Positions 3,253 to 43,034 of a stretch of DNA of 64,000 nt are shown here, one piece after another. A program made the translations under genes and the position numbers. The stretch is from the NCBI GenBank assembly GCA_964465575.1, contig CAYXIF010000004.1:12212-76211 (forward strand). The letters run 5' to 3'. How positions within the stretch are numbered: position 1 is the stretch's first letter; each line of letters starts with the position of its first letter. The DNA is from an uncultured Candidatus Bathyarchaeia archaeon. GTDB lineage: Archaea > Thermoproteota > Bathyarchaeia > Bathyarchaeales > DTEX01. The notes beneath the pieces are model-generated. The model made no database searches, was not told the origin of the DNA, and saw only the letters and a program-made list of their open reading frames with translations.

Positions 3253-4450
3253 ATTTCTTCCTTCTTCTATGAGATGACTTTAGTTGTGCCCTAGGCTTGG
3301 GTTCAGCATGCTTCTTCCACATTTCCTCAATTCGCTTCCGCAGGTCTTCTTTTAGTCTGTCGCCGACAAGGTTGCCGCTGAAGGCGTCGGTCCTTACCGC
3401 AATCGAAAGTTTGCCCGCTAAGGCTCTGGCGACCTTGCCTCTAAGCCAACGTTTAGAGCCATGGACAAGAGGATGCTGGAAGATTATGCCATGCTTAGGG
3501 GGACGAGCGCCTGTCGTCAACGATCTGAAAAGAGCTTTCTCTGCACCCAACACCTGTATCGTGCTCGCAGGCCTCTTGGCCAAGTTTCCTATTCCGCCTG
3601 CAATGGCTATCAGTCTTGCTCCCAACGTTGCTCCTGCCAGGGCACGTGTGTTAGGTGCAGCTTCCTTCATAACTTCATCGAGGTACATCTCCAGTTTGGA
3701 TCTTGCGCCATACAACTCCAGAGATTGTCCACACAAGATCTGGATCTGCTCCATGTCTACGTCGTAGAAGTCGGCGCCCATTGAGGTCCTCGCAGCTTTG
3801 GCGAGCTGCACCGCCTTGTTCTTCGGCACGTTCTGTTTCTCAATGTTCTCCTCTGTGAAACCGTCTTTCCTGCCGAGATCGCGAACGAGTCTGGCGTAGA
3901 TTTCATGTTTCTCAAGAAGCCTATCAAGCTCTGGGAAATGAAGACCATACCATTCGCGTATGCGACTCATCAACAGATTCAGGGTCTTGTCTAACTCATC
4001 CAGCGCTTGAACAGCCTGCACAATCAACACGTCCCTTTTCTCAGCTGCCCTTCGCACCTTGATCTTGGATATCTCCATCGAGACGTCATGGACCCACTTG
4101 CTCAATTCAAGAGCGGATTCAAGGAAACCTGCCTCAACAGCGTATCTCGCCAGATTCTCACGCAAGGCTTCGGCGAATCTCGAAGGCGCCTCAACCTCAG
4201 TAACTACTTTTAACTCCTTTCTGACAGCTTGGGCCATCTCTGGATTCTCAAACACGAAACTGCTGTAGCCTCTCTCTTCTAGGTTCTTGACCAGAACCAC
4301 AATCTCGTTGATAGCTCTCCCAGACTCGACTTCAATGAGTCTTTCAGCTACCTTCAAAGTATCCTTAGGAAACAGAATCTTCTCAACTAGCTTCCCGTCT
4401 TCGCCGAAGCTGAAGACTCCCACAACCGACGGGACGATGGTTGCTTTCAA
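3236..4450 (-). CDS. nop5: Nop56/58 (Nop5) C/D box sRNP core protein
   Basis: NOP-domain motifs VLGAEKALFR and PKHGIIFQHP, plus a basic C-terminal tail. 17-nt overlap with the flpA start. Confidence 0.95.
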   Translation of the reverse strand: MKATIVPSVVGVFSFGEDGKLVEKILFPKDTLKVAERLIEVESGRAINEIVVLVKNLEERGYSSFVFENPEMAQAVRKELKVVTEVEAPSRFAEALRENLARYAVEAGFLESALELSKWVHDVSMEISKIKVRRAAEKRDVLIVQAVQALDELDKTLNLLMSRIREWYGLHFPELDRLLEKHEIYARLVRDLGRKDGFTEENIEKQNVPKNKAVQLAKAARTSMGADFYDVDMEQIQILCGQSLELYGARSKLEMYLDEVMKEAAPNTRALAGATLGARLIAIAGGIGNLAKRPASTIQVLGAEKALFRSLTTGARPPKHGIIFQHPLVHGSKRWLRGKVARALAGKLSIAVRTDAFSGNLVGDRLKEDLRKRIEEMWKKHAEPKPRAQLKSSHRRRKKYGRKG

Positions 4451-4546
4451 AAACGTTCACCATGAACCTTCAAACACTATTGTCTCGCCTAGTGAATAAC
4501 CTTTTCCGTAGGGGGCTGGCGTTCCCCGGAAGGGGAGCTTTAAACG

Positions 4547-4554
4547 TTAATATA
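4547..4554 (+). promoter_or_regulatory. TATA-box-like element (ttaatata) upstream of pyrD
   Basis: AT-rich octamer 31 nt upstream of the ATG at 4585, in the nop5/pyrD divergent region. Confidence 0.45.
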
Positions 4555-4584
4555 CCCAGAGTTGGCAAGACTTCAGTGATTGTC

Positions 4585-5505
4585 ATGCAGGATTCGACTA
4601 GGCTTAGAGCAGAGATCGGGGGGTTAAGCCTCAGCAATCCCACAATTCTTTCTTCGGGAATCCTGGGTACGTCATCGGACTTGTTAAGGCGGGTAGCTCG
4701 AGCCGGAGCAGGCGCGGTCACCACAAAATCTGTCGGGCTGAAAGCTCGCAGGAGCTACCAAAACCCAACAGTAATCCAAGTTGAGGGTGGACTGCTCAAT
4801 GCTCTGGGGCTGCCGAATCCCGGCATTCACGAGTTCGCCGAAGAGATCAGAGAACTGCATGATCTTGAGGTTCCATTGATCGTCAGCATCTATGGCTTCT
4901 CTGCTGAGGAGTACGCTGAGGTTGCAGCCGTCGCAGCAGACTCAGGCGCTGATGCATTGGAGCTCAATCTCTCATGTCCGCACGTGAAGGGAGCGGGAGC
5001 TGAGATCGGACAGAACCCCCAGACGATAAGCGAAGTCACAGAGAAAGTGAAAGACACGGTGGACGGGCCTGTCTTCGTCAAGCTGACCCCCAACGTGACC
5101 GACATTACGACGCTGGCCAGAGCAGCAGCCATGGTCGGCGCAGACGCTATCACGGCCATTAACACGGTCAAGGCGATGGCAATAGACATCGAGACTGCGA
5201 AGCCGATTTTGGCAAATAAGATTGGCGGGCTTTCAGGCGGAGCCATAAAACCCATCGCCGTCAGGTGCGTGTACGAGATCTATGAGGCCACGGACATTCC
5301 AGTTATTGGATGTGGAGGGATTAGAACATGGAGAGACGCTGTCGAGTTCATGTTGGCCGGAGCTTCGGCAGTCCAGATTGGTTCAGCCATAGCTTTCGAG
5401 GACTTGGCAATCTTCAATACTGTAGCGAAAGGTGTCGACTCGTACCTTGAAGGCAAAGGGCACAAGAGCGTGAAAGAGATTGTCGGGCTGGCACATAGAA
5501 GCTGA
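4585..5505 (+). CDS. pyrD: Dihydroorotate dehydrogenase, class 1B catalytic subunit
   Basis: MQDSTRLRAEIGGLSLSNPTILSSG N-terminus and NLSCPHVKG active-site region. The ORF-track start (4441) overlaps nop5 and precedes the TATA box, so the internal ATG at 4585 is preferred. Confidence 0.9.
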   Translation: MQDSTRLRAEIGGLSLSNPTILSSGILGTSSDLLRRVARAGAGAVTTKSVGLKARRSYQNPTVIQVEGGLLNALGLPNPGIHEFAEEIRELHDLEVPLIVSIYGFSAEEYAEVAAVAADSGADALELNLSCPHVKGAGAEIGQNPQTISEVTEKVKDTVDGPVFVKLTPNVTDITTLARAAAMVGADAITAINTVKAMAIDIETAKPILANKIGGLSGGAIKPIAVRCVYEIYEATDIPVIGCGGIRTWRDAVEFMLAGASAVQIGSAIAFEDLAIFNTVAKGVDSYLEGKGHKSVKEIVGLAHRS

Positions 5506-5509
5506 CCAG

Positions 5510-6304
5510 ATGCGCATGATTCAGATCCAGAAGGTGAAGGCCGAGGCTCCCAAGGTCAAGACCTTCTCTTTTAGGGACGAGCTCTGTTCATCAGCCGAGC
5601 CCGGCCAGTTCATCATGGTCTGGATCCCAGGGGTGGACGAGATACCGCTGAGCATCTCTTCCACTAGCAACGAGTCGTCATCTGTGACTGTGAGAGAAGT
5701 CGGAGAAGCAACCCAAGCGCTGAACGGAATGAAGAACCGCGATGTGTTCGGTGTTCGAGGACCCTTCGGCAACCCCTTCAGGATTGAGGGCAAAGAAGCC
5801 TTGGTCGTCGGCGGAGGCATTGGAACGGCGCCTCTGATGATGTTGACTACGAGGCTCCTCGCTGAGAAGGTGAAAACTACTGTCGTGGAGGGAGCAAAGA
5901 CCTGTAGCGAGCTTCTCTTTGTAGACCAGCTGAGAAACCTTGCTGTTAAGGGAGTTGCTGAAGTGATCTTGGCAACAGATGATGGCAGTTGCGGAACCAA
6001 AGGACTGGCAACCGAAGTGGCGGAGAGGTTCCTTTCCTCAAGAAAGTTCGATATCATTTATGCTTGTGGAAGCGAGGCTATGATTCGCAGAATGTACCTT
6101 CTAGCCAAGAAGCACAATACTTCCTTACAGGTGAGCTTGGAACGCGTCATGTTGTGTGCTATGGGCATCTGCGGAAGCTGTGTCATAGGAAAGTATCGGG
6201 TCTGCAAAGACGGCCCGGTCTTCGATCAGACCTGGCTGAAAGAAGTCGAGAACGAACTTGGCAAGACCAAACGCGACTTCAACGGGGGTAAGGTTCCCGT
6301 CTAA
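5510..6304 (+). CDS. pyrK: Dihydroorotate dehydrogenase electron-transfer subunit (FAD / 2Fe-2S)
   Basis: Ferredoxin-reductase-like fold motifs (GGGIGTAP) and C-terminal Cys cluster CAMGICGSCVIGKYRVCKDGPVF. ATG lies 5 nt after the pyrD stop. Confidence 0.85.
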   Translation: MRMIQIQKVKAEAPKVKTFSFRDELCSSAEPGQFIMVWIPGVDEIPLSISSTSNESSSVTVREVGEATQALNGMKNRDVFGVRGPFGNPFRIEGKEALVVGGGIGTAPLMMLTTRLLAEKVKTTVVEGAKTCSELLFVDQLRNLAVKGVAEVILATDDGSCGTKGLATEVAERFLSSRKFDIIYACGSEAMIRRMYLLAKKHNTSLQVSLERVMLCAMGICGSCVIGKYRVCKDGPVFDQTWLKEVENELGKTKRDFNGGKVPV

Positions 6305-6717
6305 GCAGTGCTTTCGCTAGTCTTGGGTTTGCTTGCTTGGCCAGTTACTGGCTTTATCTTCTTCAGATAGTCCTCAACAGCTGCACGTAGCCCATCAGCA
6401 GCCAGATTCGAGCAGTGCATTTTCACCGGAGGCAGCCCGTCCAGATTGTCAGCGACATCAGCTCTCGTTATCTTCATCGCTTCTTCGAGAGTCTTTCCTT
6501 TTGCCAGCTCAGTTACCATGCTACTTGTGGCAATCGCGGCTCCGCAGCCGAACGTCTTGAACTTTATGTCCAATATGCGATTCTTTGTGACCTTAATGTA
6601 GATGGTCATGAGGTCGCCGCAAACAGGGTTGCCGACCGTGCCAATCCCGTCGGCGTCCGGAATTTCGCCCATGTTACGTGGGTTCCTAAAGTGCTCCAGA
6701 ACTCTCTCACTATACAT
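6301..6717 (-). CDS. iscU: Fe-S cluster scaffold protein IscU/NifU-like
   Basis: Three ligand cysteines in GNPVCGD, FGCGAAIA and HCSNLA contexts. Start overlaps the iscS-like stop. Confidence 0.9.
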   Translation of the reverse strand: MYSERVLEHFRNPRNMGEIPDADGIGTVGNPVCGDLMTIYIKVTKNRILDIKFKTFGCGAAIATSSMVTELAKGKTLEEAMKITRADVADNLDGLPPVKMHCSNLAADGLRAAVEDYLKKIKPVTGQASKPKTSESTA

Positions 6718-7895
6718 TATGCGATCAGCCCCTTCGGTGTCAACGGCGAGATCAACCTCAACCTCCTCACTATTCCAGGCAACAAGTCAGCCACGTAGTC
6801 AACGTCTTCCTTGGTGTTCCCCTTTCCAAGGGTGAAGAGGAGTGAGCCATGCGCTTCCTCATGCTTCAAACCTGTCGCCAAGAGAACGTGAGAAGGCTCC
6901 AAGGTCTTTGATGTGCACGCTGAACCAGAGGAGCAGGATACTCCTTCCATGTCTAAGCTGAGTATCAGAGACTCGCCTTCAATGTAGCTGAAACGGACGT
7001 TGACATTATTGGGCAGGCGTCTGCTCGGGTGACCGTTCAGGTACGATTCAGGGACTTTGTCGAGAATCACCCCGATGAACCTGTCCCTTAGCTTTGCCAA
7101 CCTGTCGGCTTCATATCCGATTTCAGATCCCGTGATCTCTGCTGCTCTGCCCATACCCACTATCCCTGGAAGGTTCTCGGTTCCGGACCTTAGGCCTCGT
7201 TCTTGCCCACCCCCATGAATTAGTGGTTGGATGGGGACACCAGTCTTGATGTAAAGGGCTCCTGTCCCTCTTGGACCGTACATGTCGTTTGACGAAAGAG
7301 TGAGTAGATCGATGTTCTCTCCCAGAACGTCTATGGGTATCTGACTTGCCGCTGCCACTGCGTCAACGTGAAAGAAAGCTCCTTGGTCGTGCGCTATTCT
7401 GCCGATCTCGGCTATCTGCTGGATTGTACCTATCTCACCGTTAGCATACGCGATAGACACTAGGATCGTCTTGCTAGTGATCTCTTGCTTCAAGGTTTGA
7501 AGGTCAATAGTCCCGTACTTGTCGACTGGTAGGTAGGCGATGTCGAAACCTTGCTTGCTAAGGTCCCTGCACGCGTTGATCACCGACATGTGCTCAATCG
7601 AGCTGGTGACTATCTTGTTTCCTCTTGACTTGTTCTTTTGGGCAACGCCTTTGATAGCCAGATTGTTGCTTTCTGTTCCCCCTGAGGTGAAGATGATCTC
7701 CTCTCTTCGTTCTGCCCCAACAAGGTTCGCTATTTTTGTGCGAGCTTCGAATATAGCCTTTCGCGCCTCATCGCCAAGGGAATGCGTGGAGGACGGATTA
7801 CCATGCTTCTCGGCAAAGTAGGGTATCATAGCTTCTACAACGCGTTCATCGATAGGCATTCCTGCTGCGTGATCCATGTAGACTCTTCGCATCAT
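6717..7895 (-). CDS. iscS: IscS/NifS-family protein lacking the PLP-binding lysine (SSND in place of SGHK)
   Basis: Class V aminotransferase fold. The catalytic-loop Cys is retained (SSGSACTSKTLEPSHVL), but the Schiff-base Lys position reads DLLTLSSNDMYGPRG. Preferred start is MMRRVYMDHAAG (ATG 7895) after a GGCGG-like RBS. Confidence 0.85.
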   Translation of the reverse strand: MMRRVYMDHAAGMPIDERVVEAMIPYFAEKHGNPSSTHSLGDEARKAIFEARTKIANLVGAERREEIIFTSGGTESNNLAIKGVAQKNKSRGNKIVTSSIEHMSVINACRDLSKQGFDIAYLPVDKYGTIDLQTLKQEITSKTILVSIAYANGEIGTIQQIAEIGRIAHDQGAFFHVDAVAAASQIPIDVLGENIDLLTLSSNDMYGPRGTGALYIKTGVPIQPLIHGGGQERGLRSGTENLPGIVGMGRAAEITGSEIGYEADRLAKLRDRFIGVILDKVPESYLNGHPSRRLPNNVNVRFSYIEGESLILSLDMEGVSCSSGSACTSKTLEPSHVLLATGLKHEEAHGSLLFTLGKGNTKEDVDYVADLLPGIVRRLRLISPLTPKGLIA

Positions 7896-7914
7896 AGAAC
7901 CGCCATCCGCACTG

Positions 7915-8289
7915 TCAGAAGCACAGGACAGCATCAGCGTCTAGGAGTCGGTCGTTCAGTGTCGCCGCGCCCACTATCTTGGAAGCTTCCACGAAGTCTC
8001 CCCGGGACAGTCCAAGAAGCATACAGCTTTGCTCGCAGACCTCAAGCCTAACTCCGGCTTTGACCGCTTGGTCCATAACCTCCTTCAGGGACGGAAAGTC
8101 TCCCAGCTTGATCTTCTCAGCTTCACCTTTCTTGACCAACGTCACCCCTTTAATGAGAAAGTATATCGTGGCATCAATCCCCATTGCGGTAGCAGTAGTA
8201 CCGAGTATGAAAGGCGCGTAAGCCCGCTCTGGCGTATCGACACCACTCGTCTGGACATAGAGTATCTTTTTTTGACTCAAATCCTTCAA
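7915..8289 (-). CDS. DsrE/TusD-family sulfur-relay protein
   Basis: 124 aa. N-terminal ILYVQTSGVDTPERAYAPFILG alpha/beta pattern typical of DsrE/DsrF-like proteins, and conserved Cys region VCEQSC. Adjacent to tusA. Confidence 0.7.
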   Translation of the reverse strand: MKDLSQKKILYVQTSGVDTPERAYAPFILGTTATAMGIDATIYFLIKGVTLVKKGEAEKIKLGDFPSLKEVMDQAVKAGVRLEVCEQSCMLLGLSRGDFVEASKIVGAATLNDRLLDADAVLCF

Positions 8290-8292
8290 TCC

Positions 8293-8535
8293 TCATTCAG
8301 CCTTTCTTATTAGAAACCTGAGATGACTTCCATTGTCTCTAAGCTCAACCAGCTCTTGCCCAGTCCGCCTAACCAGGCTCTTTATGTCCTCCTCTGCTGC
8401 TGGGTCATCCGCAAGAACCTCTAGAACTTCGCCGACGGCAATCTTGTCCAATTCCACACGAGTTCGGAAGACTGGTTCTGGACAGTATAGCCCTATGCAG
8501 TCTAGAGTGCGGTTGGGCCTAGGGTTTGAGGGCAT
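8293..8535 (-). CDS. tusA: TusA/SirA-family sulfurtransferase
   Basis: 80 aa with the diagnostic LDCIGLYCPEPV (CPxP) motif. Confidence 0.85.
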   Translation of the reverse strand: MPSNPRPNRTLDCIGLYCPEPVFRTRVELDKIAVGEVLEVLADDPAAEEDIKSLVRRTGQELVELRDNGSHLRFLIRKAE

Positions 8536-8554
8536 AGTTGTTCCTCGCTAAAGG

Positions 8555-8571
8555 ATATAACAGCGTTATAT
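8555..8571. promoter_or_regulatory. Palindrome ATATAAC-AGC-GTTATAT overlapping the TATA region of the tusA-dsrE-iscS-iscU operon
   Basis: Read directly (atataacagcgttatat). Centre is about 28 nt upstream of the tusA ATG. Shares the core ATAAC-N3-GTTAT with 9688-9702. Confidence 0.5.
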
Positions 8572-8608
8572 ATATGCCTTTCGATACCCTCCATGAAGAC
8601 TGAGCCTG

Positions 8609-9673
8609 TCACGTGTTGCCCAGAATCCTGGTGCTGAAGCCCTGCGCCTCTTCCTCGCTCTGAAGACCTTCGACTATCACTATGCCACTTCTGAGGACAC
8701 TGCCCAAACTATTCTTGGGATTACTAAAGGTCACCCCAAGGTCGCCTTTGACCTTGATCTCGTAACCTTCATGTTCAAGGGAAAGGCGCAACTTCTCCAT
8801 GTCGAGTTCGAGGGGCTTTCTTGGTGACACAAGAAAAACCCTCTTCCCTCCTCTCCCACAAAGCTCGACAACTTGCTTCCGTTGAAGCGTCATTGGTGAC
8901 CCGCGAGGTTCTGAGCCGCACACTGGGCAGTTCTCGGCCTTCTGGATATCTATCTTCTCAAAATCCATTCTACCAATATCGCAGTGAAGCATTCTCCCTT
9001 TCAGAAGCGGTTCCTTCCCGAGTATGATTCTTACAGTTTCTGAAGCTTCGACGGAAGCGACTATGCCTAGAATCGAAGGGTGAACCCCCACGACCGAGCA
9101 TTTCGGCAGCGTCTCATCATCAAGGTTGCCCTGAAAGCACTCAAGGCAAGGGGTCTTTCCGGGTATTATCGTGGACACACTACCCATCATCATAATCGCA
9201 GCTCCGAAAACGTATGGCACGTTAAGCTTCTGGCACGCTCTGTTGATAGCATAGCGCGGGGTCATGCTATCGAGCCCATCCACAACCACATCAACGTTTC
9301 TGACCAAGTCCTCAGCATTATCGACGTTCAATGCCAAGGGCAAAGGCTCAACATCTACCCTAGGGCTAAGTTCACGCAGCTTTTTCGCCGCAACCTCAAC
9401 CTTAGCATAGCCGAGCGCACCCATGTCGTAGAGAGGTTGTCTATGCAGGTTGGAAAGCTCAACGACATCGCAATCGACTAAGCGGAGATGCCCTATGCCC
9501 ATAGCAGCTAACTGTAACAAGATAGGCGACCCAAGTCCACCTAACCCAACAACGCAGACTCTTGCGTTTCTGAGTTTCAACTGTCCTTTGTAGCCCACTT
9601 CGGCGAGGACTATCTGCCGTGAGTAGAGCTCTAGCTCTGCGTATGAGAGATCATTGGTTTCGATGTTAGTCAA
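8609..9673 (-). CDS. E1-like adenylyltransferase (UbaA/MoeB/ThiF family) with an extra C-terminal domain of about 100 aa
   Basis: YSRQI, nucleotide-binding VVGLGGLGSPILLQLAAMGIG, Zn-site CLEC...CPVCG and active-site-region KCSVVGV. A 101-aa tail follows the CPVCG motif and has no rhodanese CxxxxxR motif. Confidence 0.85.
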   Translation of the reverse strand: MTNIETNDLSYAELELYSRQIVLAEVGYKGQLKLRNARVCVVGLGGLGSPILLQLAAMGIGHLRLVDCDVVELSNLHRQPLYDMGALGYAKVEVAAKKLRELSPRVDVEPLPLALNVDNAEDLVRNVDVVVDGLDSMTPRYAINRACQKLNVPYVFGAAIMMMGSVSTIIPGKTPCLECFQGNLDDETLPKCSVVGVHPSILGIVASVEASETVRIILGKEPLLKGRMLHCDIGRMDFEKIDIQKAENCPVCGSEPRGSPMTLQRKQVVELCGRGGKRVFLVSPRKPLELDMEKLRLSLEHEGYEIKVKGDLGVTFSNPKNSLGSVLRSGIVIVEGLQSEEEAQGFSTRILGNT

Positions 9674-9687
9674 ATGACACCGCCTCG

Positions 9688-9702
9688 CATAACATCGTTA
9701 TG
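9688..9702. promoter_or_regulatory. Palindrome CATAAC-ATC-GTTATG between a TATA-like box and the E1 gene start
   Basis: Read directly (cataacatcgttatg). Centre is about 22 nt upstream of the E1 ATG (9673). TATA-like ttaatatg (minus strand) lies at about 9713-9722. Confidence 0.5.
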
Positions 9703-9827
9703 AAACGAGTCCGACATATTAACCTTGCGACAAACAGAAATCCGACCAGAGAAGCCAAAGCGAACACTAAGTTTAAGATCAAGTTGCCTCTGTTTTTCTT
9801 CTCGACTGATAGCCGGATGCAACCGTC

Positions 9828-10112
9828 ATGAAGGTCATAGTCAGATACTTCACAACTATGCGTGAACTAGCCGGTACCTCACAGGAAGAGATGCTGGTGG
9901 GGGAAGGCGCAACCTTGGGTGAGACTATAGAGAGATTGGCTTCGAAATACGGACAAGAGGCGCAACGCTACCTCTACTTTGAAGAGGGCAAGCTTGACCC
10001 GTCGATTCGGATTCTTGTCAACGGTACCGATGCAGGAACGTTGCTTGGCGCGGAGACCAAGCTGAGGGATGGTGATGTGGTGGCTTTAATCCCTCCGATT
10101 GGCGGAGGGTGA
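9828..10112 (+). CDS. MoaD/ThiS-family ubiquitin-like sulfur carrier / SAMP
   Basis: 94 aa, MKVIVRYFTTMRELAG... beta-grasp pattern, C-terminus ...IPPIGGG followed by stop. Divergent from the E1 gene. Confidence 0.8.
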   Translation: MKVIVRYFTTMRELAGTSQEEMLVGEGATLGETIERLASKYGQEAQRYLYFEEGKLDPSIRILVNGTDAGTLLGAETKLRDGDVVALIPPIGGG

Positions 10113-10188
10113 CCCAACCCTGCAGCGAATTGACGGCGCAGTCTGTTCTCTCATTCTACTTGCTGCGCATCGTGAGCAGCTACCTGCT

Positions 10189-11115
10189 TTAAGCTAGGGT
10201 TTCTCTCGTCTTCAACATGAACTCAATCGCAGTCCTAGCCTTCGCTAGAGTCTTTGGAGGCACGTGCACCTGGTACCTTTCCTGCTTTAGGCTCTGGTGG
10301 ATCTTACCGAGCGTGTGTAGCCTCATGTTCACACATATCGCTTCTTCGTATGCTGGAATGAACACAGCATCCGGCCTTTCCTTCTTCATGCGGTGAAGTA
10401 GCCCTACTTCTGTTGCGACGATGAACTTCTTTGCCTTTGAGACTAAAGCTTCCTTGTACATTCTTGAGGTGCTACCGACAAAATCCGCAACTCTGCGCAC
10501 TTCTTGGCTGCACTCTGGATGAGCCATTACCTCGGCATCCGGGTGGATTCTCCTAAGCGCTAGTATGGTTGGTCTGTTGAAGAGCTTGTGAACCGGGCAG
10601 AAGCCACATGCAGGTATAGGTACGACCTTCTTGCTGGTGAAGTTTCGGGCGTAGTCCGCTAAGTTTGAGTCTGGTCCGAAGAGAACAGCATCTGAGTTCA
10701 TTCGATCTATGATCTCGGCTGAGTTGGCCGAGGTACAGACTGCGTCACAGAGGGCTTTGGCCTCGGCTAGACTGTTGATGTACAGGACTACCCTTGCGTC
10801 GGGATGTTTCTCTCTGTAGAAATCTACAAGGTCTGCAGGTAACATGGAAGCCATTGGGCATAGAGCATTCCTGTCGGGAATCAGGACTTTCTTGTCTGAG
10901 TTGAGAATAGCTGCTGTCTCAGCCATGAAGGTGACTCCGCAAAAGACTATGATCTTTGCTTGCGTCTGGGTCGCGCAGAGGGACAGCTCCAAGCTGTCGC
11001 CGACGAAATCAGCTATGTCTTGGACCTCCGGACGTTGGTAATTGTGGGCGAGGATGACTGCCTGTTTCTCTTTCCTTAGTTTGTGGATCTTCTGAACTAA
11101 AGCGTTAGTATCCAT
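10189..11115 (-). CDS. nadA: Quinolinate synthase
   Basis: ILAHNYQRPEVQDIADFVGDSLELS and other NadA-typical blocks. The ATG at 11115 sits 5 nt after GAGGTGA; the track start at 11124 is a GTG inside that RBS. Confidence 0.9.
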   Translation of the reverse strand: MDTNALVQKIHKLRKEKQAVILAHNYQRPEVQDIADFVGDSLELSLCATQTQAKIIVFCGVTFMAETAAILNSDKKVLIPDRNALCPMASMLPADLVDFYREKHPDARVVLYINSLAEAKALCDAVCTSANSAEIIDRMNSDAVLFGPDSNLADYARNFTSKKVVPIPACGFCPVHKLFNRPTILALRRIHPDAEVMAHPECSQEVRRVADFVGSTSRMYKEALVSKAKKFIVATEVGLLHRMKKERPDAVFIPAYEEAICVNMRLHTLGKIHQSLKQERYQVHVPPKTLAKARTAIEFMLKTRETLA

Positions 11116-11387
11116 GCATTTCACCTCTTGGCTCGGAGCCCATCTTTGTTCGGGCGATGCGTTTGACTACTAATCCAAGCACCTAGGCAAAAGGCGGACG
11201 CACAGCCAACGGACTTCATCATCATTGTCATCTTGTCGTTCTCGAATCGATCAAGTGTAAAGTGACAGCACAATCAAGAATAAATTCTTTACCATTCAAG
11301 TTCCGCAGCCTAAGCCAACCCACGGCAACCATTTTGCTAGCAACCTATTTATGACAAAAAGCGTTCAGATAGCATAGGATTGCCCAG

Positions 11388-11861
11388 ATGATATTCATGA
11401 GCGCTGTTGACCTGGAGAAGTTTCTTGAGAGACACGACCTATGGCACAGATTCATCATCAAGAAAGAGACAATCCACACGTCTGACGCGGCGAAGGCCGC
11501 AGGGGTTAATCTTCATAGGTTGACAAAGAACTTGGTCTCAAGAACTGATACAGGTGAAAGCGTAATCCTGATCGTGCCCGGGGACAGAAGAGTCGATCTC
11601 GGGGCTGCAGCAAGAGCGCTCAATGTTGGTAGCGTTCAACTAGTCCAATCCTCTGAAGCTGAGAAGATCAGTGGTTACACGCCTGGAGCAACGCCTTCGG
11701 TCGGGCACAGGACCAAAATGCGAGCAGTAGTAGACAAGTCTCTCCTTGAGTACGAGACTGTGTACTGCGGAGGAGGGTCGCGTGATAGACTCCTTGAACT
11801 CAGAACCGAAGATATAATAGAACTCAACAACTCAATCGTCGCAGACATCTCTTCACAATGA
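11388..11861 (+). CDS. YbaK/EbsC-type aminoacyl-tRNA deacylase domain protein
   Basis: 157 aa, YbaK/ProRS-associated domain pattern including the YCGGGS block. Confidence 0.7.
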   Translation: MIFMSAVDLEKFLERHDLWHRFIIKKETIHTSDAAKAAGVNLHRLTKNLVSRTDTGESVILIVPGDRRVDLGAAARALNVGSVQLVQSSEAEKISGYTPGATPSVGHRTKMRAVVDKSLLEYETVYCGGGSRDRLLELRTEDIIELNNSIVADISSQ

Positions 11862-26038: not shown

Positions 26039-26980
26039 TCATTGCTGCTTCAGTCTGTGCAGCAATTGACAGGTTTGACATGTCATCCCTGTCGTGGGTT
26101 CGCCACAGGTTTTGCACTTCTTCAGTGACATGTTCTTGGCTGTTCTTTTGACTGCTTTCCGGATCCTTTCCGTTGAGCTGTAGGTCGTGTACTTCGTGCC
26201 CGGATGCTTCTCTTCGAGTCTATTCAGAATACGGCGCACGTCGTTTCTCAGTGCGTCTGCGGCATATGGGCAAGGCATCTCTTGGAATGGTATATGCTTC
26301 AGATGGGCATAAAAAGCGACCTCTCTCTCAAGGACTTCGCTCATGGGTTTCACTCTTGGGACGACGCTCGCTTCTGCCAAGTCGGACACAGACTCAGACC
26401 TGAATATTCTGGACGAGTCTCCATGGATAATGTTCAGAAGGAAGGTTTGCACTTCGTCATCCAAATTATGAGCTGTGGCGATCTTGTCTGCTTTAGCTTC
26501 TCGTGCTGCAATGTTTAGAGCTCGTCGTCTCAGGACGCCGCAGTAGGCGCAAGGCGTGAGCCTTCTGCCTTTTGTTTTCTCTACCACACCGTCCATAGTG
26601 CATCCAAAGAGCTCCTTGAAAGACACGATGATATGCTCGACGCCGAGATCTGCGCAGTTTCTCGCCGCTATCCCTATGGCTTCGTCCCGGTAGCCCGCTA
26701 TCCCCTCATCGACAGTGATGGCGCACAACGAAACCTTCGGAAAGCTCTGTTCAATCTTGGACAGAATATGTAGGAGGCTGACGCTGTCTTTTCCTCCTGA
26801 GACTGCAATAGCTATCCTGTCGTCGATCTCAAACATATCATACTTGCCGATTGTAGTCCGAACCTTTCCCTCGACAGACCGGAGGAAACACCTCTTGCAG
26901 AGCCTCTCCCCGGAGTGACGACGGGCGTAGATGGGCTCTATCCGTATGCATACTGAACACCTAATCATGCTCCTTTCCAT
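26039..26980 (-). CDS. tRNA 2-thiolation PP-loop ATPase (NcsA/Ncs6/TtuA family)
   Basis: N-terminal CSVC...CKRC, PP-loop SGGKDS and C-terminal CKTCGEPTTGMTCQTC zinc fingers. Confidence 0.85.
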   Translation of the reverse strand: MERSMIRCSVCIRIEPIYARRHSGERLCKRCFLRSVEGKVRTTIGKYDMFEIDDRIAIAVSGGKDSVSLLHILSKIEQSFPKVSLCAITVDEGIAGYRDEAIGIAARNCADLGVEHIIVSFKELFGCTMDGVVEKTKGRRLTPCAYCGVLRRRALNIAAREAKADKIATAHNLDDEVQTFLLNIIHGDSSRIFRSESVSDLAEASVVPRVKPMSEVLEREVAFYAHLKHIPFQEMPCPYAADALRNDVRRILNRLEEKHPGTKYTTYSSTERIRKAVKRTAKNMSLKKCKTCGEPTTGMTCQTCQLLHRLKQQ

Positions 26981-30382: not shown

Positions 30383-30766
30383 TTGAAAGTCTTAGTCGTG
30401 ACTGGAAGGACGATAGATCAGGGCTGCGGGAAGGAGTCTGGTAAGCTCTCAGAAGAATACATGGGCAACGTTGCTCTCTGCGAGATAAACCCAGAAGACA
30501 TGGACAAGCTCAAGATACGAGACGGCGGAAACGTAAAGGTTACTACTAGATACGGCTCAGTCGTAGTTAGAGCGAAGAAATCACGGAGAACAAGAACTCC
30601 TAGCACCGTCTTCATTCCTTACGGTCCATGGACTAACACGGTCTTTGCATCAGCGACTAACGCCACGGGCATGCCCTTGCTAAAAGGTGTGGAGGCGGAT
30701 ATCGAGGCCACAGATGAAAAGATTCTGACTCTGCACGAACTCCTCAACCAGTCATATAGCAAGTGA
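30383..30766 (+). CDS. fwdD: Formylmethanofuran dehydrogenase subunit D
   Basis: 127 aa molybdopterin-dinucleotide-binding-type barrel (LVVTGRTIDQG...GNVKVTTRYGSVVVRA). GTGA overlap with fwdB. Confidence 0.8.
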   Translation: MKVLVVTGRTIDQGCGKESGKLSEEYMGNVALCEINPEDMDKLKIRDGGNVKVTTRYGSVVVRAKKSRRTRTPSTVFIPYGPWTNTVFASATNATGMPLLKGVEADIEATDEKILTLHELLNQSYSK

Positions 30767-32229
30767 AGGCATTCTGGAAGGGACCATCATTGCCGGTTGT
30801 GTCCGGGGTTGTCTGTCCCGTCTGTGGATGTTGCTGCGACGATATCGAAGTAACCGTAGAAAACGAACGAATAGTCGAAGTAAGAAACGCCTGCGCCATG
30901 GGTGCAGCGAAATTCGAGAGCTTTGGCAACCACCGGAACACAACTCCCCTCGTTAGGAAGAACGGAAAGCTCGTTGAAGCTTCGCTTGACGAATCCATAG
31001 CAAAGGCAGCGGAGATTCTCGCAAAGGCTTCTTACCCTATTCTCTATGGTTGGAGCTCAACCAGTTGCGAAGCCATAAGAACTGGCTTAGAGTTGGCTGA
31101 ACAGGTGGGTGGCCTCATAGACAACACTTCGACGATCTGTCACGGCCCGTCGATTCTCGCCGTGCAAGATGTGGGCTTGCCGGCGTCCACTCTAGGGCAA
31201 ATACGGCACCGAGCGGACCTCATCATATACTGGGGAAGCAACCCTTGGAGTGCCCACCCTCGCCACATGGAGAGATACACTGCTCTTACCGAAGGAAGGT
31301 TCCAGAAGAGCGTCTGGAGAGGACTTCTGCTCCGTGTGCAAGCAAGCTCAATCAGCAAGAGAATCCTGAGAGTCGCCGAGCTAGTTCTTAAGCGCGGCTC
31401 CCATCGCTTGCCTTCCGATGTGAGCGCACCTCAACAGGCTCTCTCAGCAGAAGAGAGAAAGGTAATCGTCGTGGATGTTCGAAGAACACGTTCAGCCGAC
31501 CTAGCCAACTACTTCGTCCAAGTCGAGCCTGGGAAAGACTTTGAAGTTCTTCAAGCGCTTCGAGCACTGGTCAGGGACGAAGAGCTCGATGCCGAAGAAG
31601 TCGGGGGAGTTCCAGTCGAAACCCTTGAAGAGATAGCTGAGGCTATGGTCAACTGCAGGTTTGGCGTTATCTTCTTCGGACTGGGACTCACAATGAGCCG
31701 CGGGAGAAACCGCAACGTTGAAGCAGCGATCAGGTTGGCTAGAGACCTGAACAAGCGGACGAAATTCCTCATCATGCCCATGAGGGGACACTTCAACGTC
31801 GCTGGAGCGGACACTGTCTTCACCTGGCAGACAGGTTACCCATACGCTGTCGACTTCTCCCATGGTTACCCTCGCTACAACCCCGGAGAGACCTCGGCTG
31901 TCGACGTGCTGAGCCGTGGAGACTCGGACGCGGCGCTTGTTGTAGCATCCGATCCCGTCTCAAACTTCCCTAGGGAGGCTGTGGCCAATCTGGTCAGAAA
32001 GGAATTGATAGTTGTTGATCCTCATCTTTCCGCCACAGCATTGATGGCTGACGTAGTGATCCCGTCAGCCCTTGTAGGGATTGAGGCTGAAGGAACGGCC
32101 TACAGAATGGATCACGTCCCGCTGCCGCTGAAGAAAATCGTTGATCCACCTGAAGGCTGTCCACCAGACGAGAAGATACTGGGCATGATACTGAACGAAG
32201 TACGACGAATCAAGAACTCGGAAATCTGA
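30763..32229 (+). CDS. fwdB: Formylmethanofuran dehydrogenase subunit B (Cys-type) with an internal insertion
   Basis: N-terminal VCPVCGCCCDDIEV cluster, TICHGPS (Cys ligand region), YWGSNPWSAHPRHM and EAEGTAYRMD blocks. 488 aa. Confidence 0.85.
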   Translation: MKAFWKGPSLPVVSGVVCPVCGCCCDDIEVTVENERIVEVRNACAMGAAKFESFGNHRNTTPLVRKNGKLVEASLDESIAKAAEILAKASYPILYGWSSTSCEAIRTGLELAEQVGGLIDNTSTICHGPSILAVQDVGLPASTLGQIRHRADLIIYWGSNPWSAHPRHMERYTALTEGRFQKSVWRGLLLRVQASSISKRILRVAELVLKRGSHRLPSDVSAPQQALSAEERKVIVVDVRRTRSADLANYFVQVEPGKDFEVLQALRALVRDEELDAEEVGGVPVETLEEIAEAMVNCRFGVIFFGLGLTMSRGRNRNVEAAIRLARDLNKRTKFLIMPMRGHFNVAGADTVFTWQTGYPYAVDFSHGYPRYNPGETSAVDVLSRGDSDAALVVASDPVSNFPREAVANLVRKELIVVDPHLSATALMADVVIPSALVGIEAEGTAYRMDHVPLPLKKIVDPPEGCPPDEKILGMILNEVRRIKNSEI

Positions 32230-41523: not shown

Positions 41524-42411
41524 ATGATCGGAATCTTGACGCGCAACGAAGGATCTTGGTGTTCTGCCCAATTGAGGAAGGCATTCACTAGACAAGGAGT
41601 CCCGTCGATGTGTTTTGGCTTTCCTAGCCTCGTGGCTCGTGTTGCGCTCAGGCCTGAAGTCTCAGTTGCAGAGACCGATGTTCTCAAGGAACTCGAAGCT
41701 GTGATCGTGCGACCAGTGGGACGCGGGTCCTTGGAAGAGATCATTTTCCGGATGGATCTTCTTCATCGACTCGAACGGTTAGGCACTTACGTGGTAAACC
41801 CGCCTTCAGCTATTGAACGGTCGGTTGACAAGTACTATACTCTTGCGCTTCTTGAGGAAGCGGGCCTCGCTGTCCCTCGAACAGTTGTAGCTGAAGACGC
41901 TGATAACGCCCTGAAGGCATTCGAAGAGCTAGGAGGCGATGTTGTAGTCAAGCCCATTTTCGGCTCGCGCGGCATTGGCTCAGTGAGAGTCTCTGAGCCC
42001 AACTTGGCTGAAAGAGTCTTCAGAGCAGTTGCTTTTCAGCATCAAGTCCTGTACATTCAAGAATTCGTTCCACATGGGAACTACGATGTGCGAATCTTCG
42101 TTCTAGGCAGACGAGTCCTGGCGTCCATGCGAAGAATAGCCGACTCATGGAAGACCAACGTGAGTCTCGGCGCAAAGCCCGTTGCTTACAGGCCACAAAG
42201 CAAAGTCAGAAAGCTAGCTCTTAAAGCCACGGAGATCATCGGCTGCGAGATAGCTGGGGTAGATGTCTTGGAGACTGAGAAAGGTCCTTTGGTGATCGAG
42301 CTCAATAGTCAGCCGGGCTGGAAAGGTCTTCAATCCGTTACTGAAGTGAACATAGCGGACGAGATAGTCAGATACATGCTCGATAGACTTAAGGCGAAGG
42401 TAAAGCGATGA
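41524..42411 (+). CDS. RimK-family ATP-grasp alpha-L-glutamate ligase (MptN/CofF-like)
   Basis: ATP-grasp blocks VVKPIFGSRGIGS, IQEFV, DVRIFVLG and AGVDVLE. ATG 41524 (MIGILTR) is preferred over the track start. Confidence 0.7.
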   Translation: MIGILTRNEGSWCSAQLRKAFTRQGVPSMCFGFPSLVARVALRPEVSVAETDVLKELEAVIVRPVGRGSLEEIIFRMDLLHRLERLGTYVVNPPSAIERSVDKYYTLALLEEAGLAVPRTVVAEDADNALKAFEELGGDVVVKPIFGSRGIGSVRVSEPNLAERVFRAVAFQHQVLYIQEFVPHGNYDVRIFVLGRRVLASMRRIADSWKTNVSLGAKPVAYRPQSKVRKLALKATEIIGCEIAGVDVLETEKGPLVIELNSQPGWKGLQSVTEVNIADEIVRYMLDRLKAKVKR

Positions 42412-43034
42412 GCAAAACCGCCATAATCCTTGCGGGAGGCGTTTCTAGAAGGTTCGGGCAAGACAAGGGGCTCATATCACTTGCAGGAAAACCCTTGGTT
42501 ATGCATGTGTTTGAGAAGGCTTGCCTAGTTGCTGAGGAACTCATTGTCGTCGTTGGCTCAGCCACTCAACGGGACCTTTATTTGCCGTTGTTTCCCAAGG
42601 GCACTAAGATAGTGGTGGATGCTGAAGAGTTGCGTAGTCCTCTGGTCGGTGCCTTGAGTGGGTTCACAAGCGCTGGAGGTGACTACTCGGTTCTGCTTCC
42701 TTGTGACACACCTTTCGTTTCGAAGGAGGTCATGGATCTCCTCTTCCACGTTGCACCGAACATGGACGCCGTCATCCCAAGGTGGCCGAACGCTTACATT
42801 GAACCTCTCCAAGCCGTATATAGAACAAGTTCCACGTTGCGGGCAGCACAAGAGGCGCTCGACAAAGGAGAAGTCAGACTGTTACCCATGATAATGTTGC
42901 TCAAGAAGGTGCGGTACATCTCGACAATGGTCATTCAGGAGATTAACCCGCGTCTGACCACGTTCTTCAACATTAACACGCCCACAGATCTCAGAAGAGC
43001 AGAAAATCTGATAAAGAGAAGCACAGTGATGTAG
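42408..43034 (+). CDS. mobA: Molybdenum cofactor guanylyltransferase (MobA-like NTP transferase)
   Basis: AIILAGGVSRRFGQDKGL N-terminal signature. ATGA overlap with the upstream ligase gene. Confidence 0.75.
   Translation: MSKTAIILAGGVSRRFGQDKGLISLAGKPLVMHVFEKACLVAEELIVVVGSATQRDLYLPLFPKGTKIVVDAEELRSPLVGALSGFTSAGGDYSVLLPCDTPFVSKEVMDLLFHVAPNMDAVIPRWPNAYIEPLQAVYRTSSTLRAAQEALDKGEVRLLPMIMLLKKVRYISTMVIQEINPRLTTFFNINTPTDLRRAENLIKRSTVM

Follow-up and report, generated by a model that had tools for sequence, protein, structure and literature searches.

The 64,000-nt stretch of DNA from an uncultured Bathyarchaeia archaeon that is analyzed here (the window; positions and strands are counted from its first letter) carries an island of six sulfur-trafficking genes between positions 6301 and 10112. 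Four of these genes, tusA-dsrE-iscS*-iscU, encode two small persulfide carriers, a protein of the IscS/NifS fold that lacks the catalytic lysine (IscS*), and an iron–sulfur (Fe–S) scaffold, and they recur as a tight operon in related archaea. The remaining two encode an E1-like enzyme and a divergently transcribed MoaD/SAMP1-type carrier. From sequence and gene context we favor, at slightly better than an even chance, a model in which TusA and DsrE would form a desulfurase-independent supply of sulfane sulfur that goes mainly to IscS*/IscU and secondarily to E1/SAMP. The six genes are as follows.

6301..6717, minus strand: iscU, MisU-type Fe–S scaffold, 138 amino acids (aa); Pfam NifU_N, 163.7 bits
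6717..7934, minus strand: iscS*, IscS/NifS fold; Pfam Aminotran_5, 262.1 bits
7915..8289, minus strand: dsrE, single DsrE3-like persulfide carrier, 124 aa; Pfam DsrE, 67.8 bits
8293..8535, minus strand: tusA, 80 aa; Pfam TusA, 81.6 bits
8609..9673, minus strand: E1, 354 aa; Pfam ThiF, 241.9 bits
9828..10112, plus strand: MoaD/SAMP1-type carrier (SAMP), 94 aa, divergent from E1; Pfam ThiS, 67.5 bits

An initial annotation of this DNA had delimited these six open reading frames (ORFs) and assigned their families, and both hold: each ORF was located where it had been placed, every one of the six proteins passes its Pfam gathering score, and the NCBIfam models are concordant. IscU also exceeds the cut-off of NifU_clost (203 bits) and contains Cys33, Cys58, Cys102, and Asp35. 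As judged from sequence, all parts of the island are members of known families, except IscS*, which groups with an inactive Archaeoglobus fulgidus paralogue.

The tusA-dsrE-iscS*-iscU Operon

A DsrE seed retrieved 80 loci from metagenome contigs, and the fractions below are taken over those loci that have enough flanking sequence. Gene order in this set was observed directly: 60 of 68 loci have tusA immediately upstream of dsrE, 50 of 71 have iscS immediately downstream of it, and 33 of 42 have iscS followed by iscU, with which the conserved operon ends. Within the operon the genes are separated by gaps of 3–20 nt, and the arrangement recurs in Bathyarchaeia, Hadesarchaea, and Archaeoglobi. 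The initial annotation had treated IscS/IscU as an ordinary scaffold pair, a description that has to be given up: the dominant conserved partner of TusA–DsrE is the Lys-less IscS together with IscU. We take the four-gene operon to be the functional core of the island, an assignment that shares the modestly favorable standing of the integrated model as a whole.

Loci seeded with iscS* show the following gene orders.

Hadesarchaea metagenome-assembled genome (MAG): TusA-DsrE-IscS*-IscU
Two other MAGs: TusA-DsrE-IscS*-IscU, with FTR1 upstream in one
Ferroglobus placidus: TusA-IscS*-IscU
A. fulgidus: DtxR-like, DsrE (67% identical), IscS2, IscU
L108: IscS*-IscU alone, neither carrier adjacent (1 of 6 iscS*-seeded loci)

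Genes beside the carriers include a small ferredoxin gene directly upstream of tusA (L018, 5503-5721; L019, 5481-5720) and an FTR1 iron permease or FeS_assembly_P gene next to tusA-dsrE (L107, 3520-4344; L017, 2373-2684 and 4221-5138). The ferredoxin and FTR1 neighbors fit an Fe–S assembly context for the operon.

IscS* Is Predicted to Lack Desulfurase Activity

IscS* carries the motif SSNDMYGP in place of the canonical S-x-H-K-I-Y-GP, which puts an Asp at the position of the Lys that binds pyridoxal 5'-phosphate (PLP); the initial annotation was thus right in calling the protein Lys-less. The Cys of the mobile loop is kept (SGSAC, Cys340 of the ORF) and is conserved among orthologues. Because homology to IscS begins only at ~7895, inside the ORF, the true start is probably Met14 of the ORF, at that position. 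Since Asp stands in for the PLP-binding Lys, IscS* is predicted to be unable to desulfurate cysteine and should not be filed as a cysteine desulfurase. Its NCBIfam NifS/IscS matches fall under the equivalog cut-offs.

The best solved-structure match of IscS* is A. fulgidus IscS2 (PDB 4EB5/4HVK; E=9e-143, ~70% identity), which has the same SSND motif. The inactivity of this type of IscS is taken from the literature: desulfurase activity is absent from A. fulgidus IscS2 and also from its D199K variant, and the protein binds pyridoxamine 5'-phosphate (PMP) and contributes a Cys as ligand of the IscU-borne [2Fe-2S] cluster, while the sulfur source of the IscS–IscU complex is stated to be open, with sulfide as the guess (PMC8918507; PMC7585200). 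With A. fulgidus IscS2 as seed, SSND is found in 119 of the 120 best homologues, and the sole SSNK among them is apparently the D199K variant (PDB 4R5F).

The loss of the Lys follows the genomic neighborhood. Every IscS that adjoins DsrE is Lys-less (49/49; SSND, with SSNN once), whereas the IscS that adjoins E1 in L001, L003, L006, L009, and L106 is a canonical SAHK paralogue, only ~50% identical. These two patterns indicate that Bathyarchaeia possess two IscS paralogues and that TusA–DsrE tracks the dead one only.

TusA and DsrE as Persulfide Carriers

Both carriers score above their family thresholds (TusA, PF01206, 81.6 bits against a cut-off of 28.6; DsrE, PF02635, 67.8 bits against 22.7). 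The best PDB match of TusA is E. coli TusA. Its Cys18 lies in a CPEP motif and forms with Cys13, a clade-specific second Cys, a C13-x4-C18 pair (Cx4C); the equivalents of Asp45 and Asp51 are kept in the segment ADDPAAEEDI. In DsrE, the active-site Cys85 lies in VCEQSC and is followed by Cys89 (Cys85-x3-Cys89). The closest solved relative is SSO1125 (3MC3), a DsrE3A-type protein whose VCVQS Cys aligns with Cys85.

The Cys motifs that the initial annotation had singled out are conserved in orthologues. Cys18 of TusA is present in 69/69 and occurs together with Cys13 in 65/69; the first Cys of DsrE is present in 83/83, Cx3C in 74/83, and the complete VCEQSC in 70/83. The identity of DsrE amounts to 76-90% over the listed Bathyarchaeia relatives and to 81% in Hadesarchaea, and this high conservation suggests constrained protein–protein contacts. 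That TusA and proteins of the DsrE3 type carry persulfide or thiosulfonate, which moves from DsrE to TusA, is established (PMC4175335; PMC11094781).

E1 and SAMP as a Possible Second Client

The E1 gene and its surroundings contain three further features.

8921..9625, minus strand: E1 adenylation domain (ThiF/MoeB/UbaA-like), residues 17-251; Pfam ThiF
8612..8908, minus strand: E1 C-terminal domain, folded like TATA-binding protein (TBP), residues 256-354; AlphaFold2 and Foldseek
10189-11124: nadA (quinolinate synthase, a [4Fe-4S] enzyme), adjoining the SAMP/E1 pair

E1 has the GxGxxG motif of the ATP site, the Zn-binding CxxC pairs at 176/179 and 249/252, and the catalytic-type Cys192, all of them invariant in 40 homologues, and its best PDB matches are MoeB and ThiF. 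It scores 208 bits with the UbaA equivalog NF047750, below the cut-off of 450, and by sequence it is E1-like and no strict UbaA orthologue. The earlier designation UbaA/MoeB stands for the ThiF domain but has to be qualified for the protein, which is not a bare UbaA. As had been proposed, no rhodanese domain is found in E1 by Pfam; the C-terminal domain is TBP-like instead (Pfam TBP, E=0.21; AlphaFold2 pLDDT 85-90; conserved CGR motif). In a Foldseek search against the PDB the top matches of this domain are TBPs, with a probability of ~1.0 and TMq ~0.55. A library of 1.8 billion proteins, searched through its 50%-identity representatives, gave 61 matching representative clusters, mostly E1 fragments, and no functional clue to the domain emerged from that search. 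The possibility that the extension substitutes for a rhodanese was rejected, given its TBP-like fold and the replacement of its conserved Cys272 by His in some homologues. The combination of E1 with a TBP-like domain has been described before (Makarova and Koonin 2010; Brindefalk 2013), and no strong neighborhood links were reported for such proteins (Makarova and Koonin 2010). The relatives retrieved from genome collections with the E1 seed are all Bathyarchaeia MAGs.

With the NCBIfam models, SAMP scores 72.4 bits for moaD_arch and 66.1 bits for SAMP1, above the respective cut-offs of 49.5 and 60, and its C terminus is IGGG, that is, it ends in -GGG. The divergent SAMP/E1 pair beside nadA is the conserved context of E1 (L001, L002, L005, and L009). 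nadA itself is found near SAMP/E1 in the window and in L001, L002, L005, L009, and L106, and in L001 it directly follows the canonical iscS, an order that recalls the NifS–NadA donor–acceptor pair of B. subtilis (PMC13066941).

The sulfur donor for UbaA/SAMP in archaea, which the initial annotation had called unresolved, is still listed as unknown (PMC5372739; PMC11323500). The adjacency E1-tusA-dsrE was expected to recur in relatives and does not: among the DsrE-seeded loci with sufficient flanking sequence, 0 of 38 place E1 directly upstream of tusA in the manner of the window, and E1 occurs anywhere in 2 of 80 (L038 and L083). DsrE is found near E1 in 1 of 14 E1-seeded loci, with none in the 11 E1-seeded loci that come from genomes. 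A TATA-like run lies in the 73 nt that separate E1 from tusA in the window, which gives tusA a promoter-like region of its own.

E1 and the carriers nevertheless meet in other arrangements.

L104 (Bathyarchaea): ThrC-like-ThiS-TusA (CPEP, 67% identical)-DsrE (80% identical)-E1-ThiI
L038 (Bathyarchaea): ThrC-like-ThiS-TusA (CPEP)-DsrE, a gap, then E1
L106: IscS(K)-IscU-TusA (CPVP)-E1-JAB-SAMP
L105: ThrC-like-ThiS-E1-sulfite reductase-TusA (CPYP)
A. fulgidus L100 (AE000782.1, ~504.3-507.6 kb): ThrC-like PLP enzyme, SAMP/MoaD, UbaA-like E1, TusA (YedF/YeeD-like), DsrE2-like, TusA, type III sulfide:quinone reductase (SQR)

The A. fulgidus cluster SAMP-E1-TusA-DsrE-TusA-SQR lies 4.5 kb from the dsrE-iscS2-iscU genes of the same organism and suggests that, in a cultured archaeon, sulfur from sulfide may reach E1 and a ubiquitin-like protein (Ubl) by way of SQR and the persulfide carriers. 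Upstream of the E1 family there is either a canonical desulfurase with TusA or TusA–DsrE, which is the alternation expected if TusA relays to E1 and DsrE replaces the desulfurase as source. The link of E1 to TusA–DsrE is not accidental, and a relay from TusA/DsrE to E1 is plausible. Likely consumers of carrier-bound sulfur that had been pointed out elsewhere in the window are borne out at the family level: an NcsA-like PP-loop protein (26039-26980), a MobA-like protein (42408-43034), and FwdB (30763-32229; 568 bits against a cut-off of 328).

The proposal that TusA/DsrE feed E1/SAMP thus gains comparative support from the L104 and L038 operons, the A. fulgidus cluster, and a palindrome shared by the two units (described below). 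A stronger version would have TusA–DsrE mainly load the rhodanese-less E1/SAMP, with IscS/IscU as an ordinary scaffold pair that is nearby by chance. The abutment of E1 and tusA in the window would agree with it, as would the presence of TusA–DsrE within E1/ThiS operons (L104, L038) and in the similar A. fulgidus cluster, the palindrome common to E1 and tusA, and the unknown sulfur donor of archaeal UbaA (PMC5372739). We consider it unlikely: the dominant partner of TusA–DsrE is IscS*-IscU (33/42), against the rare co-occurrence with E1 (0/38 directly upstream, 2/80 anywhere), the adjacent IscS lacks its catalytic Lys, a trait that tracks DsrE adjacency perfectly, and tusA has its own promoter-like region.

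A Palindrome Shared by the Two Transcription Units

The 64-kb window contains two copies of the sequence ATAAC-N3-GTTAT, where 0.01 are expected by chance, and a search that tolerates one mismatch adds no further copy.

8557..8569: ATAAC-AGC-GTTAT, putative operator of the tusA operon, overlapping the TATA-like run
9689..9701: second copy, ATAAC-ATC-GTTAT, in the E1/SAMP divergent intergenic region

The center of the first copy is 28 nt before the tusA ATG, and the second copy is 15 nt before the E1 start codon. Related loci contain 55 sites in 788 kb, with the extended consensus TATAAC-N3-GTTATA in an A/T-rich context. Among all 1024 palindromes of the form 5-N3-5 it is the top outlier in these 788 kb (mean 0.9; next highest 14); the loci were selected through sulfur genes, and the enrichment therefore describes a regulon and is no genome-wide statistic.

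Across loci the sites stand at fixed distances from the genes that follow. The spacing ahead of tusA is 20-22 nt in seven lineages (the window, L020, L022, L025, L032, L048, and L049) and 27 nt in L094; ahead of E1 it is ~16 nt in seven lineages, including L001, L002, L005, L009, L083, and L106, and ahead of canonical iscS likewise ~16 nt. Further genes preceded by the palindrome are those for sulfite reductase, PAPS reductase, cysteine synthase, a MetY-like protein, and an FdhD fusion, as well as those for a PF03601 membrane (transporter-like) protein, FTR1, and a TFB paralogue. Examples of its sites are as follows.

L001: 6974
L009: 6973, 10593, and 10669
L106: 3579, 3683, and 5973
L105: 4395, 4416, 7163, and 8808

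This position is where the TATA box of leaderless transcripts is expected, and the palindrome may be either a specialized promoter element or an operator whose occupancy would exclude TBP. It marks a putative sulfur-assimilation regulon in Bathyarchaeia.

A candidate regulator of this regulon, proposed on the basis of gene position, is a small HTH_3/Cro-like protein of 104-126 aa with conserved Cys residues (an N-terminal xCE and a C-terminal FCxxC), for which neither a dedicated Pfam family nor a PDB relative was found. Its gene was located at the following positions.

L003: 12757-13137
L105: 11742-12071
L026: 2079-2390, minus strand
L010: 3416-3742
L100 (A. fulgidus): 9620-9958

This gene lies between three palindromes in L003, after E1 in L010, divergent from tusA in L023, L024, L026, L028, and L062, and directly after iscU in A. 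fulgidus. No homologue is present inside the 64-kb window.

Proposed Mechanism and Alternatives

The transfer steps of the favored model, and their direction, are drawn from gene context and homology. A DsrE trimer would take sulfane sulfur from polysulfide, persulfide, or oxidized sulfide onto Cys85 and hand it to Cys18 of TusA. The TusA persulfide (TusA-SSH) would then pass its sulfur to the loop Cys of IscS* or to IscU, where reduction would be followed by assembly of a [2Fe-2S] cluster. By analogy with A. fulgidus IscS2, IscS* probably only binds IscU and gives a Cys ligand. The clade-specific second Cys of each carrier (Cx4C in TusA, Cx3C in DsrE) could serve as a resolving thiol for the persulfides. 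At the second client, TusA-SSH would attack the adenylated C terminus of the SAMP/MoaD-like protein on the rhodanese-less E1, yielding a thiocarboxylate (SAMP-COSH) for molybdenum cofactor (Moco) synthesis and tRNA thiolation. The E1 unit and the tusA-dsrE-iscS*-iscU unit would have separate promoters and one palindromic operator in common, which would place both transcription units in a wider sulfur-assimilation regulon.

Several observations weigh against this model. IscS is missing downstream in 9 of the 42 DsrE loci; the Lys-less iscS-iscU pair of L108 has no adjacent carrier; the iscS* operon lacks tusA in A. fulgidus and dsrE in Ferroglobus; and DsrE is near E1 in only 1 of the 14 E1-seeded loci. 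All of these loci were picked via E1, DsrE, or IscS*, and they form a set enriched in sulfur genes. In sulfidic habitats free sulfide could load IscU directly, and the carriers would then be dispensable. The palindrome, for its part, could be a specialized promoter element rather than an operator. Docking of TusA raises a further difficulty. When E. coli TusA docks on IscS, 4 Å separate its Cys from the loop Cys of IscS (PMC2854127), and the residues of IscS that receive TusA there (W45, E49, and D52) were rejected as a docking site in IscS*, where they are not conserved. The Lys-less and canonical paralogues are alike at these positions. A charge swap, with an Asp of TusA at the Arg31 position and a Lys/Arg of IscS* at the Glu49 position, is conceivable but is only a lead.

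A different role for the carriers has to be considered as well, in which TusA–DsrE handle reactive sulfur, for example as a buffer for polysulfide or thiosulfate or in detoxification, while IscS*-IscU uses free sulfide directly and the genes lie together only because one sulfur-responsive regulon includes them all. A detoxification role has been proposed for DsrE4/DsrE5-type proteins (PMC11094781), sulfide suffices for archaeal Fe–S assembly in vitro and in Methanococcus (PMC13066941; PMC7585200; PMC11323500), and TusA–DsrE or DsrE alone is found in unrelated contexts (L017, L059, L079, and L060). Against it stand the recurrence of an operon with gaps of 3-20 nt in Bathyarchaeia, Hadesarchaea, and Archaeoglobi, a pairing exclusive to the inactive IscS paralogue, and a DsrE that is 76-90% identical over the listed Bathyarchaeia relatives, which suggests constrained contacts, and we regard this explanation as improbable. 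An E. coli-like Tus relay, in which IscS* would mobilize sulfur from an unknown substrate in a PLP/PMP-dependent manner and pass it through TusA to a TusD-like DsrE, is very improbable: although the set of IscS, TusA, and a DsrE/TusD-family protein mirrors IscS-TusA-TusBCD (PMC2854127) and A. fulgidus IscS still binds the pyridoxal-type cofactor PMP (PMC8918507), neither A. fulgidus IscS2 nor its D199K variant has desulfurase activity (PMC8918507; PMC7585200), the Asp replacement is fixed in 119/120 homologues, the window has an NcsA-type thiolase, and neither tusE nor mnmA turned up in the neighborhoods examined, in which no dedicated search for them was made.

The desulfurase-independent supply of IscS*/IscU and E1/SAMP by TusA–DsrE could be part of something larger. 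More tentatively, and at less than an even chance, TusA–DsrE may open a third, cysteine-desulfurase-independent sulfur route in anaerobic archaea, fed by environmental or SQR-derived sulfane sulfur, in which protein persulfide would serve both Fe–S assembly on IscU with a dead IscS and thiocarboxylation by E1, all under control of the palindromic operator and the HTH-Cys regulator.

Relation to Known Systems

The closest counterpart is the A. fulgidus IscS2–IscU pair (4EB5, 4HVK), which shares with the island ~70% identity to IscS*, the Lys-to-Asp replacement in SSND, the retained Cys loop, and an iscU immediately downstream; a 67%-identical dsrE lies directly upstream of IscS2. MIS (MisS/MisU) has been defined as a minimal two-protein Fe–S system without accessory components (PMC13066941). 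The pair is present here, yet two persulfide carriers, tusA and dsrE, are co-operonic with it in most loci.

The E. coli system IscS-TusA-TusBCD, including the supply of sulfur to MoaD by TusA, is similar in its CPEP-containing TusA with Asp45/Asp51 and in the DsrE/TusD-family and IscS-fold partners. It differs in that IscS* is predicted to be dead, so that cysteine would not be the origin of the sulfur and the flow would be reversed. One DsrE-family gene is found in the cluster rather than TusBCD, the search not having been aimed at TusB/C, TusE, or MnmA, and the TusA-binding residues of E. coli IscS are not conserved in IscS*. The DsrE3A-DsrE2B-TusA cascade of Metallosphaera cuprina and the sHdr-linked DsrE3/TusA proteins are similar in that the closest solved relative of the DsrE here is the DsrE3A-type SSO1125, with the active-site Cys aligned, and transfer from DsrE to TusA has been demonstrated there (PMC4175335; PMC11094781). 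Those cascades feed dissimilatory sulfur oxidation (sHdr/Dsr), whereas the neighbors here are biosynthetic (IscS*/IscU and E1/Ubl), and the Cys spacing of DsrE is Cx3C here and Cx7C there.

Haloferax UbaA-SAMP, Thermus TtuC-TtuB-TtuD, and eukaryotic Uba4-Urm1 likewise combine an E1-like enzyme with a GG-ended carrier of the MoaD/SAMP1 type. In contrast to them, the island has neither a rhodanese domain nor a rhodanese partner, and TusA/DsrE is the proposed persulfide donor. Sulfur-carrier-dependent synthesis of cysteine or homocysteine is performed by CysO/CysM/MoeZ in M. tuberculosis and by MetM/MetO in Streptomyces. The ThrC-like enzyme and ThiS-like carrier encoded next to E1 in L104, L105, L038, and A. 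fulgidus presumably resemble MetM/MetO and CysM/CysO; the pair is absent from the window. In these archaea TusA–DsrE stands where MoeZ has its rhodanese domain.

The literature consulted, of which coverage is incomplete so that an earlier mention is possible, yielded no link of DsrE/TusA with a Lys-less IscS or with archaeal E1/Ubl (ThiF/ThiS) proteins. A TusA–DsrE persulfide module thus apparently serves both a MIS/ISC-type scaffold and E1/Ubl, in place of a desulfurase or a rhodanese. Archaeal E1/SAMP systems are without rhodanese domains and often without cysteine desulfurases (PMC5372739; PMC11323500), and the same two small proteins are now candidates both for the sulfur source of IscS2–IscU and for the donor to E1/SAMP. 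Cultured A. fulgidus has such carriers, with dsrE directly upstream of iscS2, and the crystal structure of its IscS–IscU complex is already solved, which makes both questions testable with purified proteins. If the model is correct, the "minimal" MIS is not always minimal, and desulfurase-free mobilization of sulfur has a defined protein route instead of relying on free sulfide. The shared operator, in turn, outlines a sulfur regulon in uncultured Bathyarchaeia.

Neighboring Genes in the Window and in Related Loci

Canonical IscS, SQR, ThrC-like/ThiS, JAB, ThiI, and sulfite reductase were searched for across the window, and none is present. In L060, L087, and L094 the slot between ybaK-like and pyrK-pyrD, which corresponds to 4441-11861 of the window, holds only tusA-dsrE. 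Because of these loci the larger island of the window (iscS*-iscU, E1, SAMP, and nadA) looks like a lineage-specific rearrangement that has joined modules.

In L104 (3723-5025), L105 (4739-5963), and L038 (3-510) the E1 family has as neighbors a threonine-synthase-like (ThrC-like) PLP enzyme and, after it, a ThiS-like carrier that ends in GG. L105 (7243-9333), L106 (1712-3510), and L002 (~3800-5600) encode a third TusA paralogue, of the CPYPQ type, together with a sulfite reductase of the assimilatory type (NIR_SIR), and in L106 ATP sulfurylase and PAPS reductase are encoded near this pair.

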